Notes: generated by a model from the letters alone, not told the origin. Shown: positions 38,396 through 57,721, counted from the first letter of the stretch. The stretch is 64,000 bases of DNA from an uncultured Aquimarina sp. (GCA_947493495.1 CANLRN010000016.1:1404-65403), one strand, 5' to 3'. Program-made: numbers and translations.

Positions 38396-38516
38396 ATAAA
38401 TTTTCTTTTACAGTACATCTATAGAATAAACGGTATTACTTTTATAAAAAAGAAAAATCTATTGCAGACACAATAGATTTTTCTTGTAAAATTTATTTTG
38501 AGTGTATCCGGTATAG

Positions 38517-41500
38517 TTAACTTACTAACTCTTCAACAACTTCGGTCTTCTTTTTTTCTTTTAACCCTACTTTGCTTACTGTATCATACATTACAGGTGT
38601 TGCAATGAATAAGGATGAATAGGTACCTACTAGCACACCAATAATTAATGAAAACATAAACCCTCTTAATGGTTCTGCAAAAATAAAGATGGCGATCAAT
38701 ACTAGTAATGTAGTTAATGAGGTATTCAACGTACGGCTCAATGTACTATTCAATGCGCCATTAATATTCTTATCTAATGGCCAAGAGGTATGTTCTGCAA
38801 AATACTCTCGTATTCTATCAAACACCACCACGGTATCATTCAATGAATATCCAATTACAGTCAATATCGCTGCTATAAATGCCTGATCGATTTCCATATT
38901 AAATGGCATAAATTTCCATGTCAATGAGAATACACCTAATACTACCAATACATCGTGGAATACTGCCGCCACAGCACCTAAACTAAATTGCCATCTTCTA
39001 AACCTAAATAAGATATATAAGAAGACTACAATTAGAGATCCTATTACAGATATAAACGCTGCTTGCTTAATATCATCTGCAATGGTAGGTCCTACTTTTA
39101 TAGAAGACATAATACCCACTTGCTTATCTTCTGCTCCATCAGAGAATTGTCGATATTCCATCCCCTGAGGAAGATAGGGTTTCAAAGCTTTGAATAATGA
39201 ATTAGAAATCTCAGAATCTACAGCTTCACCAGTTTCATCGATTTTATATTTGGTAGTAATTTTCAATTGATTGTTTGCACCTAGGGTTTTTGCTTGAGCA
39301 CTCCCAAATTCTGCTATCAATACTTTTTCTACATCGGTAGGCACCACATCATTGGCAAAACGTACCGTATATGTTCTACCTCCTACAAAATCAACGCCTT
39401 GATCCAATCCTTGCGTAAACAAAGAGGCAAGACCAGCTACAACAATTACAGCAGAAATCACATATGCAATCTTTCTTTTACCTAAGAAATTAACATTCAT
39501 ATTAGCAAACCAATTTTTGGTTATCGCTGTAGAAAATGCTAGCTCTTTACCATTTTTACCATATCCATCAATAAATAATCTAGTGATAAAAATTGCCGTA
39601 AACAGAGAAGTCAAAATACCAATCAATAAGGTAGTTGCAAATCCTTTGATAGGCCCTGTCCCAAAATAGAAAAGGATTAATCCGGTAAGACCTGTAGTAA
39701 TATTGGCATCTAAGATCGAAGATAATGCATTATTAAATCCATCTTTAATAGCGTCTTTCTGTATTTTGCCTTTGGCTAATTCTTCTTTAATTCTTTCAAA
39801 AATAAGTACGTTGGCATCTACCGACATACCAATCGTTAGTACAATACCAGCAATACCAGGTAAAGTAAGTACTGCTTTTAGTCCTGCTAATACACCAAAA
39901 ATAAATAAGATATTTACTACCAATGCTATATCTGCAAAAACACCTGCTTTTCCGTAATAGAAAACCATCCAAATCAATATCAATGCCAATGCAATTGCAA
40001 ACGACATCGTACCACTATTAATTGCCTCTTGTCCTAATGACGGCCCCACTATTTCACTCTGTATAATATCTGCAGATGCTGGCAATTTACCAGCTCGCAA
40101 TACATTGGCCAAATCTGTTCCTTCTTCTACAGTAAAATCTCCTGATATCTGGCTGTTACCTCCACTTATCGCACCAGTAGTAACTCCAGGAGCAGAATAT
40201 ACAATATCATCTAGTATAATAGCAATTTGACTTCGTTGCGTAAACGCTTTGCCTGTCATTTCTTCCCATTTCTTAGCTCCTTTACCGTCCATCTGCATAG
40301 AGACAACAACCTGATTCAACTGATCATAAGTCTGAGAAGCATCTGTTATTACACCTCCACTTAATTCTGGCACATTATCACGATTTCCTTTAATAGCATA
40401 TAAGTCTAAAATATCAGAATCTTTGGTTTGTTTTCCCCAAGCAAATTTAGCATATCGCAAATCACCTGTTAATAATGATTTTACCTTAGGGTTGTTAAGA
40501 TAGTTATTAAATTCTGCCGTGTCTTTTATCGCTACTCTAGCAATAACAGGACCTCCTTGCCCTCCTTGACCTGCTAATAAATCAAAAATAGGATTTACCT
40601 GATCTTCAACATCTGTAGAATCTTCTGAATCTGCTAGTAATTTTTCAATTTCGGCATCTGCATCAGTGGCTGTAGAATCTACTTGTGTAGAATCGATAAT
40701 TTTATCTACAGATTCTGCTATCTCTATTTTTTCTTTAGTATCTTTTTTCGTCTTTTCTATATCTTCTTTCAATACATTGTTTGCAGAAACTAGCACATTA
40801 AAAACCTCTTCCATCTTAAATACATCCCAGAATTCTAACTGCGCTGTACTCTGTAATAATCTCCTAACACGATCTACATCTTTTGCTCCAGGCAATTCTA
40901 CCAAGATACGTCCAGACTCACCTAGTCGTTGAATGTTTGGTTGTGTAACTCCAAACTTATCAATACGCTTACGTAGTACCTCGAATGCTGAAACAACTGA
41001 TTCATCAATTTTTCTTTTCAGAATTGGCTTGACTACATCATTAGACATATCGAATGTGATATCATCACTTAAATTCTTATTAGCAAAAATATCTGGAGAT
41101 GCCAATTGCGTATCTGGTATCTTTTCAAACTCTGTAAAGAAATCTTCTACATAGGTATTCTGACTATTTTTTTGAGTTTGATCTGTGGCTAGCAAAGCTT
41201 GGTTAAAAGCTGGGTTTTTCGAATAGTTGGCCAGTCCTTTTAATATATCTTTTACAGAAATTTGGAGTATTACATTAATACCTCCTTCAAGGTCAAGTCC
41301 TTTATTCAATTCTTTGCTTTTAGCATCATTATAGCTATAATTGGCAAAAATTGGTTCTTTGCCAATAGAATCTAAATAGCTACGTTGAGCTGTTTCTCTT
41401 AGATTCGAATAATCAGCTACAGTTTCTGGATATTTATTGATCGCATATCCTTCTGCTTCTTTTTCTTTTGTGTATGTTAAGTATGTAAACGATAGTTGGT

Positions 41501-52687: not shown

Positions 52688-53137
52688 ATGAAACATTTTT
52701 TCTCATTGATCTGTATCCTATCTTTACTTATTAGTTGCAAAACTGAAAACACTAACCCTACAGCTATTTTTCATAAAACCCATGAACCTAAAAAAGTAAA
52801 TGCTCCATTTTCTGATGCAGTTCAGGTTGGAAATCTATTTTTCCTTTCTGGCCAAGTAGGAATGGATCATACCACAAGAAAATTAGTACCAGGAGGCATC
52901 AAAGCAGAAACAAAAAAGGTGTTAGAAAATATAAAGGAGGTATTAGCTCAACATCAAATGACTATGGACAATGTAGTGAAGTGTACTGTAATTCTTTCTG
53001 ATATTGATGATTTTTCTGCTTTTAATCAGGTATATACTACATATTTCCCGCAAAAGCCTGCGCGTACTACTTTTGCGGCCAGTGGATTGGCTGTAGGAGC
53101 TAAAATAGAAATAGAGTGTATTGCTGCTAGATATTAG
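52688..53137 (+). CDS. Rid (YjgF/YER057c/UK114) family protein with N-terminal lipoprotein signal
   Basis: PFSDAV..GNLFFLSGQVG, VVKCTVIL, FNQVY, PARTT and KIEIECIA motifs; N-terminus MKHFFSLICILSLLISC. Confidence 0.85.
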   Translation: MKHFFSLICILSLLISCKTENTNPTAIFHKTHEPKKVNAPFSDAVQVGNLFFLSGQVGMDHTTRKLVPGGIKAETKKVLENIKEVLAQHQMTMDNVVKCTVILSDIDDFSAFNQVYTTYFPQKPARTTFAASGLAVGAKIEIECIAARY

Positions 53138-53208
53138 CAAACCATAGATAGCTAATCTCACTCCAAAATTCGTGATTCATAATTTTTATTATTTACCTTT
53201 GCATCCTT

Positions 53209-53838
53209 ATGCTAGAAAGTACAGAAAAGTTAGTTGCAGAGGGTAAAATGCTTCCTCTTATGGAAGAGTTCTATACGATACAAGGTGAAGGGTATCATAA
53301 AGGAACTGCAGCCTATTTTATTAGGATTGGAGGATGTGATGTTGGTTGTCATTGGTGTGATGTAAAAGAAAGTTGGAATGCTGATCTACACCCTCCTACA
53401 GATACAAATACTATTGTAACAAAAGCAATCGCTTATAGTAATGTCATTGTAGTTACCGGAGGAGAACCACTCACATGGGATATGACTGTCTTAACTGATA
53501 CACTAAAACGCAAAGGTGCTACAACACATATAGAAACATCTGGAGCTTATCCGCTAACGGGAACATGGGATTGGGTTTGCCTCTCTCCCAAAAAAACAAA
53601 GTTGCCAGTTACAGAAATTTATAACAAAGCAAATGAGTTAAAATGTATCATCTATAATAAAGATGATTTTAAATTTGCTGAAGAACAAGCTGCTCAAGTT
53701 TCTAATGATTGTATATTATATCTGCAACCCGAATGGAGTGTTAGAGAAAAGGTAATTCCGCTAATTGTTGAGTATGTGATGAAAAAGCCAGAATGGAAAG
53801 TATCTTTACAGACTCATAAATACCTGAATATTCCATAA
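53209..53838 (+). CDS. queE: 7-carboxy-7-deazaguanine synthase (radical SAM)
   Basis: FYTIQGEG, FIRIGGCDVGCHWCD (CxxxCxxC), TGGEP, IETSG and SLQTHKYL motifs. TACCTTTG -7 element at 53194-53201. Confidence 0.93.
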   Translation: MLESTEKLVAEGKMLPLMEEFYTIQGEGYHKGTAAYFIRIGGCDVGCHWCDVKESWNADLHPPTDTNTIVTKAIAYSNVIVVTGGEPLTWDMTVLTDTLKRKGATTHIETSGAYPLTGTWDWVCLSPKKTKLPVTEIYNKANELKCIIYNKDDFKFAEEQAAQVSNDCILYLQPEWSVREKVIPLIVEYVMKKPEWKVSLQTHKYLNIP

Positions 53839-54120
53839 TTAGCTTTTTTATAGTACTAGTTTTGTCGTTTTTTAGAGTTTTTTTAAAACTAGCAAACATC
53901 ATATTACGGATATTCCATACATAAAAGGGAAATATCCCTTAAAAATACTATTAAAAATGAAAGAAAAATACTATAATAATATTTAATAAAATTTAATATT
54001 TTGTTTTTTATCGATTAAATTATTTATTTCATGTGTAAAATTAAGTATTTTGACATTTAATTTTAAAATTATAAAATATTGTTGTTAAATTTACAGTAAG
54101 TAATTTAAAATCAATATACT

Positions 54121-54207
54121 ATGAGGAGTTTTTACACTATTTTTAAATTAGTAATTAATTTTATTAAAGAACTACCTGCAGCATCAAGTCATGTAATACG
54201 CCATTAA
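54121..54207 (+). CDS. Unannotated 28-aa microprotein A: MRSFYTIFKLVINFIKELPAASSHVIRH
   Basis: Hand translation; paralog of 54721-54819; A-rich leader (TAAAATCAATATACT-ATG); hairpin downstream. Confidence 0.6.
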   Translation: MRSFYTIFKLVINFIKELPAASSHVIRH

Positions 54208-54245
54208 TATGGTACTACTATTACATATGCTAAACGCAAGTAATC

Positions 54246-54277
54246 AAAGAGGTTTTCAGTTTGATAACCTCTTTTTT
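54246..54277 (+). terminator. Intrinsic terminator after microprotein A
   Basis: AAAGAGGTT...AACCTCTTT stem followed by a T tract. Confidence 0.6.
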
Positions 54278-54685
54278 GTGTCCTTATAAAAGGAGGTGTA
54301 TATTCTATTGACAGATTAGCTGGATAATAATCAATTCTTTTTTGTACTAAAAAAGCAGGTTCTTATAAAAATTAAAGTACTATTTAATAGTATATAGTAC
54401 TTGCATATAACTCTTCTATTGTATTTTAAAAAAATTGAAAGAATTATCTTCTATAAGTAAACAGGAATTATAAACAGCTGAAAAGGTATTTTACATAGAT
54501 AATCAACAAAAAAACCGTAAATAACATCATTATAATTGAGAATATGTTAAAAAATAATACATTTTACATATATATTATCACTTGATTACATTAATAATTA
54601 CGTCATTAATCTATAAAATATGTATTTTTATCTAAAAAATAATACTGAAATTGTTAAAAGTATTGATTTAAGGCTGTGTAGATTA

Positions 54686-54693
54686 TATATTTG
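54686..54693 (+). promoter_or_regulatory. -7 promoter element for microprotein B
   Basis: TATATTTG with TTG at 54663-54665 (20-nt spacer), 28 nt upstream of ATG 54721. TAAATTTA occupies the identical offset (54086-54093) before microprotein A. Confidence 0.55.
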
Positions 54694-54720
54694 TATAACT
54701 TATTAAAATTAAATATTATT

Positions 54721-54819
54721 ATGGGGCTATTTTACACTAAATTCAGATTAACATTTAGAATTGTTATGGATTTTCTAAAAGATCTACCAGCAGCATCAAG
54801 TAATGCTATGCGTAGATAA
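54721..54819 (+). CDS. Unannotated 32-aa microprotein B: MGLFYTKFRLTFRIVMDFLKDLPAASSNAMRR
   Basis: Hand translation; shares FYTxFxL and (E/D)LPAASS with 54121-54207; consensus promoter upstream. Confidence 0.65.
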   Translation: MGLFYTKFRLTFRIVMDFLKDLPAASSNAMRR

Positions 54820-55034
54820 TTTTTCATGTTTCGATAATTGTTAAGTATCAGTAAGAATTTTTCGATACATAAGGACACTAGTTCTTGGGGTACATCATTA
54901 ATACTCATACTTACAATTGTATTTCTTATCATTCTATATTCATTGATGATAGGATAGCATACTAATCTATATGTCTTAATCTAGGAAAAATTGTTTTGTA
55001 TAAACAATTAAATGTTTAATAATTTTAATCCAAT

Positions 55035-55071
55035 AAAAAAAGCGAGGATACTTAATCTGTATCTTCGCTTT
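55035..55071 (-). terminator. Intrinsic terminator downstream of the DUF2911 gene
   Basis: AAAGCGAGGATAC...GTATCTTCGCTTT stem; the A tract on the left reads as a U tract on the minus strand. Confidence 0.75.
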
Positions 55072-55128
55072 ATGATATATACTAGTACTATATTATATTA
55101 ATACACTAGACTACTTAATACTTATCTA

Positions 55129-55662
55129 TTACATATAAAATGGAACCTCAACTCTAGTCGTTTCCCATCCCATTACCATATGATATCCTTTGTCTACTTT
55201 CTTAAAAGCAATTGAGAAAGCTTCTATCTCTTCGCCTGTTGCTGCTGGAACTTTTATTCTTGCTACATCATTACTCTCATTATAAGAGTATGCACCCCAT
55301 ACATCTAGGTCAGAACTTAAAATAATTGTCCATTCTTTTTCTCCTGGGATTGTAAACAAAGAGTACGTACCTGCTTTTACAGCCTTATCTCCCATTTTTA
55401 CATCTTGATACAATTTTATTTCTGTTGCTTCGTCTGCTCCTGTTCTCCAAACTTTTCCGTATGCTACTTTGTCGCCTAGCATAGTTCTCCCTTTCTTTTG
55501 GGGTCTGCTATAAATAACCTTAATTTCTGGTTTCGCATTTCTATCAGCCTTGGCATAAGAAATATCGGTAGGACTCTTTTGTAACCCTTTAAATTTTTGG
55601 GCTTGTATGCCTGTTACTGTTCCTAAAAACATAATAACTGCAAGTAAAAGTGATTTTTTCAT
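55129..55662 (-). CDS. DUF2911 family exported protein
   Basis: SP..., YSRPQKKGR, YGKVWRTGADEAT, GTYSLFTIP and MGWETT motifs; signal peptide from ATG 55662. Confidence 0.88.
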   Translation of the reverse strand: MKKSLLLAVIMFLGTVTGIQAQKFKGLQKSPTDISYAKADRNAKPEIKVIYSRPQKKGRTMLGDKVAYGKVWRTGADEATEIKLYQDVKMGDKAVKAGTYSLFTIPGEKEWTIILSSDLDVWGAYSYNESNDVARIKVPAATGEEIEAFSIAFKKVDKGYHMVMGWETTRVEVPFYM

Positions 55663-56056
55663 GATCTGTGAATTTATTTTTTTTAATAGGCGTAAAGATA
55701 TCTGTGAACTTACATACAAAATGTTAATCCCCTCATTAAATTGTGTTAAAATGAAATGCAACAAATTTTCGTTTTCTTTTTAAACCATAATTGATATAAA
55801 CTGTAACTACAGAAAAAGAATGAATGTTTTTCTAGTAAGACTCCTCAAATTTATAATTACAAAAATTCGCTTTATACCCATAAAATGTTTTCCTATCAAC
55901 TTGTTAGTATTTTTTACTCAAAACTTCATTTTAGTTTATTTTTGTTTCAAAAAAACATAATATTGTTTCATTTTATAACTAATATTTAATTATTGTTTAT
56001 ATTTTAAAACTATTTAATCATCTTTGACTTCTTAATTAATAGAATATATAAAAATT

Positions 56057-57721
56057 ATGTGCGGAATTGTTTGTGCTTTTGATTTGAAAGAAAAAACAGA
56101 GGTCTTAAGACCTCAATTATTAGAGATGTCAAAAAAGATACGTCATAGAGGGCCTGATTGGAGTGGGATTTATTCAGATATTAATGTTATTATGGCACAT
56201 GAACGATTGGCCATTGTAGATCCTGTTTCTGGGAAACAACCCTTATTTAGCGATGATAAAAAAATAATACTAGCTGCAAACGGAGAGATCTATAATCATA
56301 GGGATATTCGCAAACAGTTTGAAGGAAAGTACAATTTTCAGACTGCATCTGATTGTGAAGTAATTTTAGCATTATATAAAGAGAAAGGGACTGCATTTTT
56401 AGATGATCTTAGTGGTATTTTTGCATTCGCATTATATGACCAAGAAAATGATTCGTATCTGATTGCAAGAGACCATATGGGGATAATTCCTTTATATATG
56501 GGATGGGATCAGAATGGTACTTTTTATGTAGGATCAGAATTAAAAGCCCTTGAAGGGGTTTGCACTAAAATTGAACTATTCCCTCCAGGACACTTTTTAG
56601 ATAGTAAATCAGGGGAATTAGAAAAATGGTATGTTAGAGATTGGACTGATTTTGAAGCTGTAAAAGAGAATCAAACCAGTATTGATGAACTAAGAGATGC
56701 TCTAGAAGCCGCGGTGCATAGACAATTAATGTCTGATGTACCCTATGGAGTGTTATTATCAGGAGGACTTGATTCTTCTGTTACTTCTGCGGTTGCCAAA
56801 AAATATGCAGAAAAAAGAATAGAATCTGGAGATACCAAAGATGCGTGGTGGCCTCAATTACATTCTTTCTCGGTAGGACTAGAAGGATCTCCTGATCTGG
56901 CTGCTGCTCAAAAAGTAGCAGATCATATAGGAACTGTGCATCACGAAATCAAATTTACGATACAAGAAGGTCTGGATGCAATTAAAGATGTTATTTATAA
57001 TCTAGAAACCTATGATATTACCACCATTAGAGCTAGTACACCTATGTATTTGATGGCTCGGGTCATTAAGTCTATGGGAGTAAAAATGGTGCTTTCTGGC
57101 GAAGGGGCGGATGAGATATTTGGTGGATATCTGTATTTTCATAAAGCGCCAAATGCGCAAGAGTTTCACGAAGAAACAGTACGTAAGTTAGACAAATTGC
57201 ATATGTATGATTGTCTACGCGCCAATAAATCCTTGGCAGCTTGGGGAATCGAAGGTAGAGTTCCTTTTCTGGATAAAGAATTTATGGATGTAGCGATGCG
57301 AATCAATCCACAAGATAAAATGATCAATGGAGAGCGAATGGAGAAATGGGTGATCCGCAAGGCATTTGAATCCTATTTGCCAGAAAGTGTAGCCTGGAGA
57401 CAGAAAGAGCAGTTCTCTGATGGAGTGGGATACAGCTGGATAGATACCCTAAAAGAAGTAGTAGAAACAGAAGTAACGGATGAGCAAATGGCAAATGCGC
57501 ATTTTAGATTCCCTATACAGACCCCTCAAAACAAAGAAGAATTTTATTACAGAACCATTTTCGAAGGTCATTTTCCGAGTGATGCAGCAGCCTTAAGTGT
57601 ACCACAAGAGCCTTCTGTAGCTTGTAGTACTAAAATAGCATTAGAATGGGATGAAGCTTTTAAAAATATGAATGATCCTAGTGGTAGAGCGGTAGCCAAT
57701 GTTCATGATGAGGCATATTAG
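56057..57721 (+). CDS. asnB: Asparagine synthetase B (glutamine-hydrolysing)
   Basis: N-terminal MCGI, RHRGPDWSG, HERLAIVD, NGEIYNH, LLSGGLDSS, SGEGADE and WRQKEQFSDGVG motifs. Confidence 0.97.
   Translation: MCGIVCAFDLKEKTEVLRPQLLEMSKKIRHRGPDWSGIYSDINVIMAHERLAIVDPVSGKQPLFSDDKKIILAANGEIYNHRDIRKQFEGKYNFQTASDCEVILALYKEKGTAFLDDLSGIFAFALYDQENDSYLIARDHMGIIPLYMGWDQNGTFYVGSELKALEGVCTKIELFPPGHFLDSKSGELEKWYVRDWTDFEAVKENQTSIDELRDALEAAVHRQLMSDVPYGVLLSGGLDSSVTSAVAKKYAEKRIESGDTKDAWWPQLHSFSVGLEGSPDLAAAQKVADHIGTVHHEIKFTIQEGLDAIKDVIYNLETYDITTIRASTPMYLMARVIKSMGVKMVLSGEGADEIFGGYLYFHKAPNAQEFHEETVRKLDKLHMYDCLRANKSLAAWGIEGRVPFLDKEFMDVAMRINPQDKMINGERMEKWVIRKAFESYLPESVAWRQKEQFSDGVGYSWIDTLKEVVETEVTDEQMANAHFRFPIQTPQNKEEFYYRTIFEGHFPSDAAALSVPQEPSVACSTKIALEWDEAFKNMNDPSGRAVANVHDEAY

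Follow-up and report, generated by a model that had tools for sequence, protein, structure and literature searches.

The stretch analysed here (the window) is 64,000 nucleotides (nt) of DNA from an uncultured Aquimarina sp. (CANLRN010000016.1:1404-65403), and its subject is a pair of very short genes in one intergenic interval. The interval, 53839-55128, spans 1,290 base pairs (bp) from a queE-type radical-SAM gene (53209-53838, plus strand; QueE by its best relatives) to a DUF2911 gene (minus strand, ending at 55129). Its GC content is 17-26%, against 33-39% in the flanking genes, which bears out the description of an AT-rich, 'empty' interval in the original prediction. The two short open reading frames (sORFs) were read at the positions given there. 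Copy A, a 28-amino-acid (aa) microprotein gene (MRSFYTIFKLVINFIKELPAASSHVIRH), occupies 54121-54207 including the stop codon, and copy B, a 32-aa microprotein gene (MGLFYTKFRLTFRIVMDFLKDLPAASSNAMRR) to which the DUF2911 gene is convergent, occupies 54721-54819 including the stop codon. Both are on the plus strand and their start codons are exactly 600 bp apart. Copy A matches the family profile described below (a hidden Markov model, HMM) with E = 1e-17. When the DNA of the two copies is aligned with 120-nt flanks, the similarity is centred on the ORFs and is interrupted by a single in-frame 12-nt gap, the indel that had been proposed. Copy A has a 4-codon deletion in the source genome; its orthologues (A-type), which in A. 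rubra, A. litoralis and others are the gene next after queE, are 32 aa long. The antisense frame is indeed broken in copy A: no minus-strand ORF of at least 20 aa overlaps it, and a 66-aa minus-strand ORF overlaps copy B.

The two genes belong to a larger family. Searching the whole source assembly (5.02 Mb, 333 contigs, 32.8% GC) with tblastn located three copies beyond the window pair, five in all: a third (MNYIYSSIGLIFKSVFNFLKDLPGASSYAIRK) at C1:213368-213463 on the minus strand, a fourth (MKSFRINFKFLKEFLRELPKACSHAIHR) at C81:1575-1661, also minus, and a fifth (MMNLIYKSLGIDLATLKKFLKELPSACSHAIHR) at C39:38563-38661 on the plus strand, each followed by a strong hairpin and a T-run. A first profile made from these five copies matched 24 of 24 same-genus genomes at E ≤ 1, 20 of them below 1e-14, and many of the matches formed tandem arrays with members 200-500 bp apart. 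An improved profile was then used for a census of 91 Aquimarina genomes (E ≤ 1e-5). The family was found in 75 of these, including 70 of the 80 good-quality ones, with 1-14 matches per carrier genome and about 600 in total; the 10 good-quality genomes that lack it are mostly smaller ones. Since the same peptides recur some 600 times in 75 genomes, the resemblance of copies A and B is far beyond chance. The expectation that homologues would be found in relatives was thus borne out, and the view of A and B as paralogues with promoters of their own holds; what has to be given up is the notion of a pair, as there are five copies here and the family is multicopy across the clade. Outside the genus, only five genomes among 250 other Flavobacteriaceae genera gave a match at ≤1e-3 (best 1.8e-8). 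The four such matches inspected are short relatives that retain the tail, one reading ...LKELPKACSYAIHR. On this census the family is confined almost entirely to a large clade of Aquimarina.

Evidence for coding comes chiefly from orthologues of copy B (B-type), compared as 20 distinct orthologous DNA sequences. Heterozygosity at the three codon positions is 0.09/0.03/0.31, so that the third position varies 3-10 times as much as the first and second. The stop always falls at codon 33, as TAA, TAG or TGA. The ratio of nonsynonymous to synonymous divergence (pN/pS, by the Nei-Gojobori method) is 0.11 for the B-type, 0.17 for a middle MKxFYGI type and 0.38 for a mixed A-type set. Residues 1-7 and 9-13 of the B-type are unchanged and residues 8, 14 and 17 vary in at most a few sequences; over the first 13 residues, just two sequences show a change, at one position each. 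The variation at third positions, together with a fixed stop position at which the stop codon itself changes, argues for translation and for purifying selection. Conservation therefore lies on the plus strand, as had been claimed, and both sORFs are best regarded as genuine, translated and independently transcribed genes under purifying selection. The likeness between paralogues is seen at the protein level and is mostly gone at the DNA level; the paralogues are anciently diverged, each of them conserved.

Each gene has a predicted promoter. For copy A the promoter region (54050-54093, plus strand) consists of TTGACA at 54050-54055 and the -7-like element TAAATTTA at 54086-54093, at an offset common to the family; a sigma-70-style scan upstream of this copy also returns TTGACA-16-TAAAAT. 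A-type orthologues have TAATTTTA or TAAATTTA at the same -7 position. The copy B promoter (54663-54693, plus strand) comprises TTGATT in the -33 region (54663-54668) and the -7 box TATATTTG (54686-54693) and is kept in the orthologues, which conserve TTGA and TATATTTG. In agreement with the original prediction the two elements sit at the same offset, both TAAATTTA and TATATTTG ending 27 nt 5′ of the respective ATG. In Bacteroidetes, sigma-A promoters have TAnnTTTG as their -7 element. An exact TAnnTTTG starts 31-40 nt before the ATG, a single 10-nt bin, in 40 of 68 family copies; almost all other 10-nt bins of a single cassette contain at most three, and further peaks, at +320 to +339, come from the following copy's -7 box where copies stand in tandem. 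The element ends 25-27 nt before the ATG in most members, and those copies without an exact TAnnTTTG, copy A among them, have a one-mismatch version in the same position.

The leaders are about 20-27 nt long (longer in copies of the C81 type), A-rich and without a Shine-Dalgarno sequence. They show AAA at -13 to -11, A at -8, 59% A at -3 and 89% T at -1, with G almost absent. Such an A-rich, G-poor leader would fit initiation without a Shine-Dalgarno sequence in Bacteroidetes.

Further elements lie upstream of the promoters. A near-palindromic box, TTATCGATTAA, is found at 54008-54018 (plus strand) upstream of copy A; its ATCGAT recurs in relatives, at a similar upstream distance in 18 of 79 family copies, mainly A- and B-type. 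Upstream of copy B the box TATCTAAAA (54629-54637, plus strand) is invariant or nearly so across 21 B-type upstream regions. Variants of TATCTAAAA are common to the other array paralogues, so that the box is present in most array copies, which also share a TGTTAATTTTTT -33 region. Measured from the -7 box, TATCTAAAA is about 45-50 nt and the palindrome TTATCGATAA (ATCGAT core) about 65-75 nt upstream. The former may be a regulator site or an UP-like element, and the TTATCGATAA/ATCGAT boxes may also be regulator sites. The upstream elements differ between paralogue types, one of which has a sigma-54-like box, and this suggests that the paralogue types are differently regulated.

We note some details of these other types. 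In the C39 type a sigma-54-like -24/-12 box, TGGCAC-N5-TTG(T/A), replaces the TAnnTTTG promoter of the array copies and the leader contains a CCGAT...ATCGG hairpin; both box and hairpin are conserved in two species (contig C39, approximately 38450-38661; orthologue L104, 5938-6180, minus strand). The 28-aa C81-type paralogues share a conserved upstream GGGTGTTTTCCCCCATTGTGC element.

The terminator-like hairpin reported 3′ of copy A was recovered at 54246-54277 (plus strand) as an intrinsic terminator with a 9-bp stem and then U6 (-13.2 kcal/mol, z = -3.46 relative to shuffled sequences). There is no convincing terminator directly 3′ of copy B in the source genome; its orthologues have one. 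Between copy B and the DUF2911 gene lies a strong hairpin (55039-55071, -18.4 kcal/mol, z = -5.9), preceded by an A-run and followed by a U-rich stretch, which is probably the terminator of the convergent DUF2911 gene acting bidirectionally. Many B-type orthologues (L008-L019) have a hairpin directly after the stop codon (TTATTATCCC...GGGATAATCA), then TTTAGGGGCATAAA and a second strong terminator. In those orthologues the structured 3′ untranslated region is about 110 nt long; it is not conserved in the source genome. Each family gene is a cassette complete in itself, made up of a Bacteroidetes-type promoter, a short A-rich leader, an almost always 32-codon frame and, usually, a terminator.

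The peptides are of strikingly constant length, 62 of 69 distinct peptides having exactly 32 aa. The C-terminal 15 residues, F-[LI]-[KR]-[EDQ]-L-P-[SGA]-A-[SC]-[SG..]-[NHY]-A-[IM]-[HR]-[RK]-stop, are near-invariant in this set, which was gathered by a pattern that fixes some motif positions; sets gathered by HMM show the same motif. Its core is LPxA[S/C], with Ser in 49 and Cys in 20 peptides at the last position. The shared C-terminal motif first described as LPAASS is therefore real, with the exact form giving way to LPxA[S/C] for the family. The part before LP (residues 1 to about 21) is cationic and amphipathic, as had been proposed for the N-terminal half, with a hydrophobic moment (muH) of 0.41-0.68 that exceeds shuffled sequences in four of the five copies. 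This helix part differs between paralogues and is almost frozen within each orthologue group; the tail after Pro is not amphipathic. Net charge is +3 to +5 and the grand average of hydropathy (GRAVY) -0.34 to 0.42. Lys, Arg, Asp or Glu occurs every 3-4 residues along the peptides, and no signal peptide, transmembrane-grade stretch or Gly-Gly motif was detected in them. AlphaFold2, given a 12-sequence alignment, predicts a single helix from residue 2 to 31 with a mean predicted local distance difference test score (pLDDT) of 72 and the highest confidence at residues 11-20. The product falls into two modules, a paralogue-specific amphipathic helix and a shared C-terminal motif.

In keeping with the earlier statement that no named family is recognisable, neither peptide gave anything in a whole-library Pfam-A scan at E up to 10. 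Pfam, NCBIfam, PADLOC and PHROGs together returned no meaningful match, only one of 14 bits (cut-off 213 bits) and two PHROG matches at E ~0.35. Rfam gave no match to 53000-56500 at a permissive threshold, and a profile search of the PDB gave chance-level matches only, the best (E = 0.31) to a helix-turn-helix stretch of an affibody. When 1.84 billion representative proteins were searched with a profile, 41 matched. Thirty-nine of them are 26-68 aa long and carry the same tail, the longer peptides having apparently been annotated from starts further upstream; the remaining two, long repetitive proteins, were taken as spurious. In a 15-billion-protein collection, one of ten exact sequences was present and the sole cluster name was 'hypothetical protein ATE84_1873 [Aquimarina sp. 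MAR_2010_214]'. A word-indexed search with a 42-aa TTG-extended frame as query gave four unnamed clusters without Pfam domains. We found no published literature on the family. The reported graspetide precursors of Aquimarina are unrelated, being GG-motif peptides that adjoin ATP-grasp enzymes. With no family or structure match and no literature, we regard the family as undescribed; public records give at most 'hypothetical protein'.

The genomic position of the array is conserved. The closest relatives of the window's QueE, at 79-83% identity, are those of Aquimarina rubra, A. litoralis and A. gracilis, and all three species have three or four family members directly 3′ of queE. Five further assemblies match the window order HerA(-), RidA, QueE, 32-aa genes, DUF2911(-), AsnB. 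In the relatives the array opens with the A-type and closes with the B-type, with one or two middle types (MKLFYGIL... and MNKFF...) between them; the array of the source genome has A, four codons shorter, and B only. Where the relatives carry the middle copy, at 54395-54464 (plus strand), the window has a -7-box-like TACTTGCATATAAC and then a frame, LFYCILKKLKELSSISKQ, without ATG. A tblastn search of the 1.3-kb interval with the relatives' middle copy 'MKLFYGIL' matches this position at E = 0.05 and the DNA alignment is ambiguous; the segment may be a decayed middle copy, but this is a weak call.

Neighbouring genes were surveyed as 25 proteins at 12 loci in four genomes. They include QueE, DUF2911, HutG, an AhpD-like protein, a pyridoxal phosphate (PLP) lyase, type IX secretion system (T9SS) cargo and GH18, as well as a cyclic nucleotide-binding regulator, VgrG, hybrid and histidine kinases, DnaJ, bL21 and a TraG-like protein. 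No function is common to these 25 proteins, whose genes are of unrelated housekeeping or secreted-protein kinds, and guilt by association is uninformative. None of the surveyed copies adjoins an exporter, immunity or peptide-modifying gene, which extends to all 12 loci the remark that no maturase or exporter is adjacent. C81-type paralogues are interleaved with genes for T9SS-secreted (Por_Secre_tail) proteins and for a GH18 chitinase, and a Cys/Met PLP lyase is encoded next to them (L101, 8180-12214, in genome G009; source contig C81, 1575-1661). The relatives outside the genus (L108, 6364-6718, minus; L106, 5043-5222, minus; L109, 6080-6223, plus) have diverse settings: in one genome rplU is adjoined by a tandem pair that is rich in Lys (MKKIKKHFKVSTKKISEFIKELPAAASHTLNH and its sister), in a second the only copy is close to a GH18 gene, and in a third the copy adjoins a traG-like coupling-protein gene. 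The last of these hints at occasional horizontal transfer; plasmid and phage searches found no family copies on either.

We tentatively favour the view that the peptides are intracellular regulatory or adaptor microproteins that bind a partner, the common tail docking onto one partner and the helix giving specificity. They would reside within the cell, possibly on the inner face of the membrane, and act through binding other macromolecules. The shared C-terminal motif would dock onto a single common, conserved partner, and the paralogue-specific helix would supply specificity or a second contact. The family would then supply a conserved cellular machine with modulators that are regulated in different ways, much as known bacterial regulatory small proteins do. 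Partner binding is favoured because of the core-genome location, the old and frozen paralogues (polar face included), the strict length and the universal tail, four features that suit specific-partner binders and would be unexpected in rapidly evolving weapons or in surfactants of a generic kind. Over the first 13-19 positions of the B-type, polar and hydrophobic residues alike are essentially invariant between species whose QueE is only ~80% identical. Among the candidate roles originally listed, a regulatory microprotein fits better, and phenol-soluble modulin (PSM)-like and type I toxin-like peptides fit worse.

Regulatory small proteins such as MgrB, AcrZ, MntS, SgrT and Sda act by binding a larger partner. 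Like the present peptides they are tens of residues long, largely one helix and expressed from stand-alone promoters; they too are under purifying selection, often unannotated and without enzymatic capacity. They differ in being single-copy and, in many cases, transmembrane, whereas the present family has 1-14 or more paralogues with a shared C-terminal motif. Searches of Pfam, the other family libraries and the PDB showed no sequence similarity to any of the five. SpoVM of Bacillus subtilis (26 aa, binding curved membranes) is likewise a small cationic amphipathic helix, one that acts intracellularly on a membrane surface, and its start, M-K-F-Y-T-I, resembles the M-[KR]-x-F-Y-T-I of many family members. 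However, SpoVM has no C-terminal motif and Aquimarina is non-sporulating. Pairwise BLASTP gave 7/24 identities (29%) with 9 gaps and E = 0.075, and we take this as resemblance, not homology.

Several observations weigh against partner binding. A cationic amphipathic helix of this size fits a membrane-active secreted peptide equally well, and the AlphaFold model is of moderate confidence, based as it is on 12 sequences. Tandem arrays and up to 14 or more copies per genome are commoner among toxins, bacteriocins and signalling peptides than among regulators. The invariant C-terminus could alternatively be an export or processing signal. Lastly, the B-type ORF begins with the same 17 nt (ATGGGGCTATTTTACAC) in all 20 distinct orthologues, the unusual GGG and TAC codons among them, and synonymous divergence (pS) is half as high in codons 1-16 (0.32) as in codons 17-32 (0.65). 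These figures point to an additional nucleotide-level constraint that overlies the 5′ end of the B-type and could reflect translation initiation or an RNA contact, so that an RNA-level role may contribute.

The main rival, which we consider somewhat unlikely, is that the peptides are exported and membrane-active: leaderless amphipathic surfactants, cytolysins or antimicrobials that leave the cell by an unlinked transporter, with the tail as export handle. Peptide chemistry, arrays and copy number all fit. The charge of +3 to +5, the Phe-rich hydrophobic face and the high hydrophobic moment without a signal peptide are as would be expected, as are the tandem arrays of 2-4 related, genus-restricted and almost never annotated peptides; Aquimarina also includes algicidal and animal-associated species. 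On the other hand, antimicrobial and cytolytic peptides usually diverge fast, whereas here purifying selection is strong and the N-terminus is frozen in each orthologue group. The location is syntenic and core-genome, not accessory, with no exporter or immunity gene nearby; the out-of-genus relatives are Lys-rich, not hydrophobic; and membrane activity needs neither a helix-breaking LP nor a small-residue tail.

Two known systems, which the peptides would then resemble in function, are relevant to this comparison. The phenol-soluble modulins of Staphylococcus are also genus-restricted, core-genome, tandem and long unannotated, and the present peptides resemble them in being leaderless amphipathic helices, as judged from hydrophobic moment and the AlphaFold model. 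Modulins differ in belonging to another phylum and in sharing an operon, whereas each gene here has its own promoter and the peptide tail an invariant Pro, and purifying selection is much stronger than in modulins. Membership of the PSM-alpha, PSM-beta or delta-lysin families was rejected, as Pfam-A gave no match at E up to 10. Leaderless bacteriocins of the aureocin A70 and enterocin L50 type similarly place several related cationic peptides of ~30 aa, without leaders, side by side. They are, however, found in accessory or plasmid clusters with an ATP-binding cassette (ABC) exporter and immunity genes, in contrast to the syntenic chromosomal slot flanked by queE and DUF2911.

The four lesser rivals each fail at least one defining test. 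It is improbable that the genes encode type I toxin-like or self-toxic small proteins, each restrained by a small RNA. Tandem, intergenic copies of ~30 aa with a narrow taxonomic range, missed by annotation, are typical of ibs/sib, ldr/rdl and zorO/orzO loci, whose genes have ~20-35 codons. Those toxins are nevertheless hydrophobic transmembrane helices, while the present peptides are cationic and amphipathic with no transmembrane-grade hydrophobic stretch, and the leader is very short instead of long and structured. Nor was there a conserved antisense promoter signal: in a scan of 250 nt around 68 copies, no 10-nt bin showed an excess of antisense TAnnTTTG, non-canonical promoters lying outside that scan.

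We think it quite improbable that the peptides are precursors of ribosomally synthesised and post-translationally modified peptides (RiPPs), with the conserved Ser/Cys as modified residue, the helix as recognition sequence and the enzymes encoded elsewhere. Ser and Cys do interchange at one otherwise invariant position (49 S, 20 C), and the many dispersed paralogues are reminiscent of prochlorosins, which have many dispersed paralogous precursors. The F-x-x-x-L that precedes the Pro may also resemble leader motifs. Yet no modifying enzyme adjoins any copy examined, and the 99.99%-complete source genome has no YcaO and no PqqD-type RiPP recognition element (RRE) domain. The azoline-RiPP possibility prompted by the Ser/Cys position was rejected on that absence. 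The genome has two C39-ABC exporters, but the peptides lack the Gly-Gly signal of their substrates. The conserved C-terminus and variable N-terminus invert the arrangement of leader-core precursors, and most members have no Cys, which excludes the thioether classes. The source genome also encodes one SPASM enzyme.

A decidedly improbable reading is that of cis-acting leader or ribosome-arrest peptides, in which the C-terminus would stall the ribosome to control a downstream gene. Conservation up to the stop codon, as in the TnaC, SpeFL and SecM-type arrest peptides, and the strict 32-codon length are in its favour. However, the units contain no further gene 3′ of the sORF: a terminator lies beyond copy A, terminators and a convergent gene lie beyond copy B and its orthologues, and the dispersed copies adjoin unrelated genes in either orientation. 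Finally, non-coding elements (small RNAs or repeats) with chance open frames, to which the 5′ nucleotide constraint of the B-type and the hairpin conserved after the stop in many of its orthologues might be attributed, are very unlikely and already largely refuted by third-position bias, by a stop that is kept while its codon changes, by in-frame indels, by the lack of an Rfam match and by a paralogue likeness that is protein-level and largely lost in DNA.

Returning to partner binding by a common tail, we consider an extended form of it possible, though rather doubtful: a modular system in which a universal C-terminal 'plug' (LPxA[S/C]xxA[I/M][H/R][R/K]) would combine with up to a dozen or more helices to instruct one machine, or one export or processing route. 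With promoters that differ between the helices (sigma-A-type, but sigma-54-like in one type), the family would amount to a combinatorial regulatory layer that arose in one flavobacterial genus.

No part of bacterial genomes is less charted than the small proteins, and coverage of Bacteroidota is particularly poor. The family described here offers a clean training case for sORF annotation in organisms without Shine-Dalgarno signals. Should the shared C-terminal motif prove to serve as a signal for docking or export, it could lead to a partner system not yet described, in a genus that attracts study for its natural products and for its host and algal associations. Being large, strongly selected, almost unannotated, two-module in design, fixed in length and transcribed from promoters of its own, the family would provide a tractable entry to lineage-specific microproteins.

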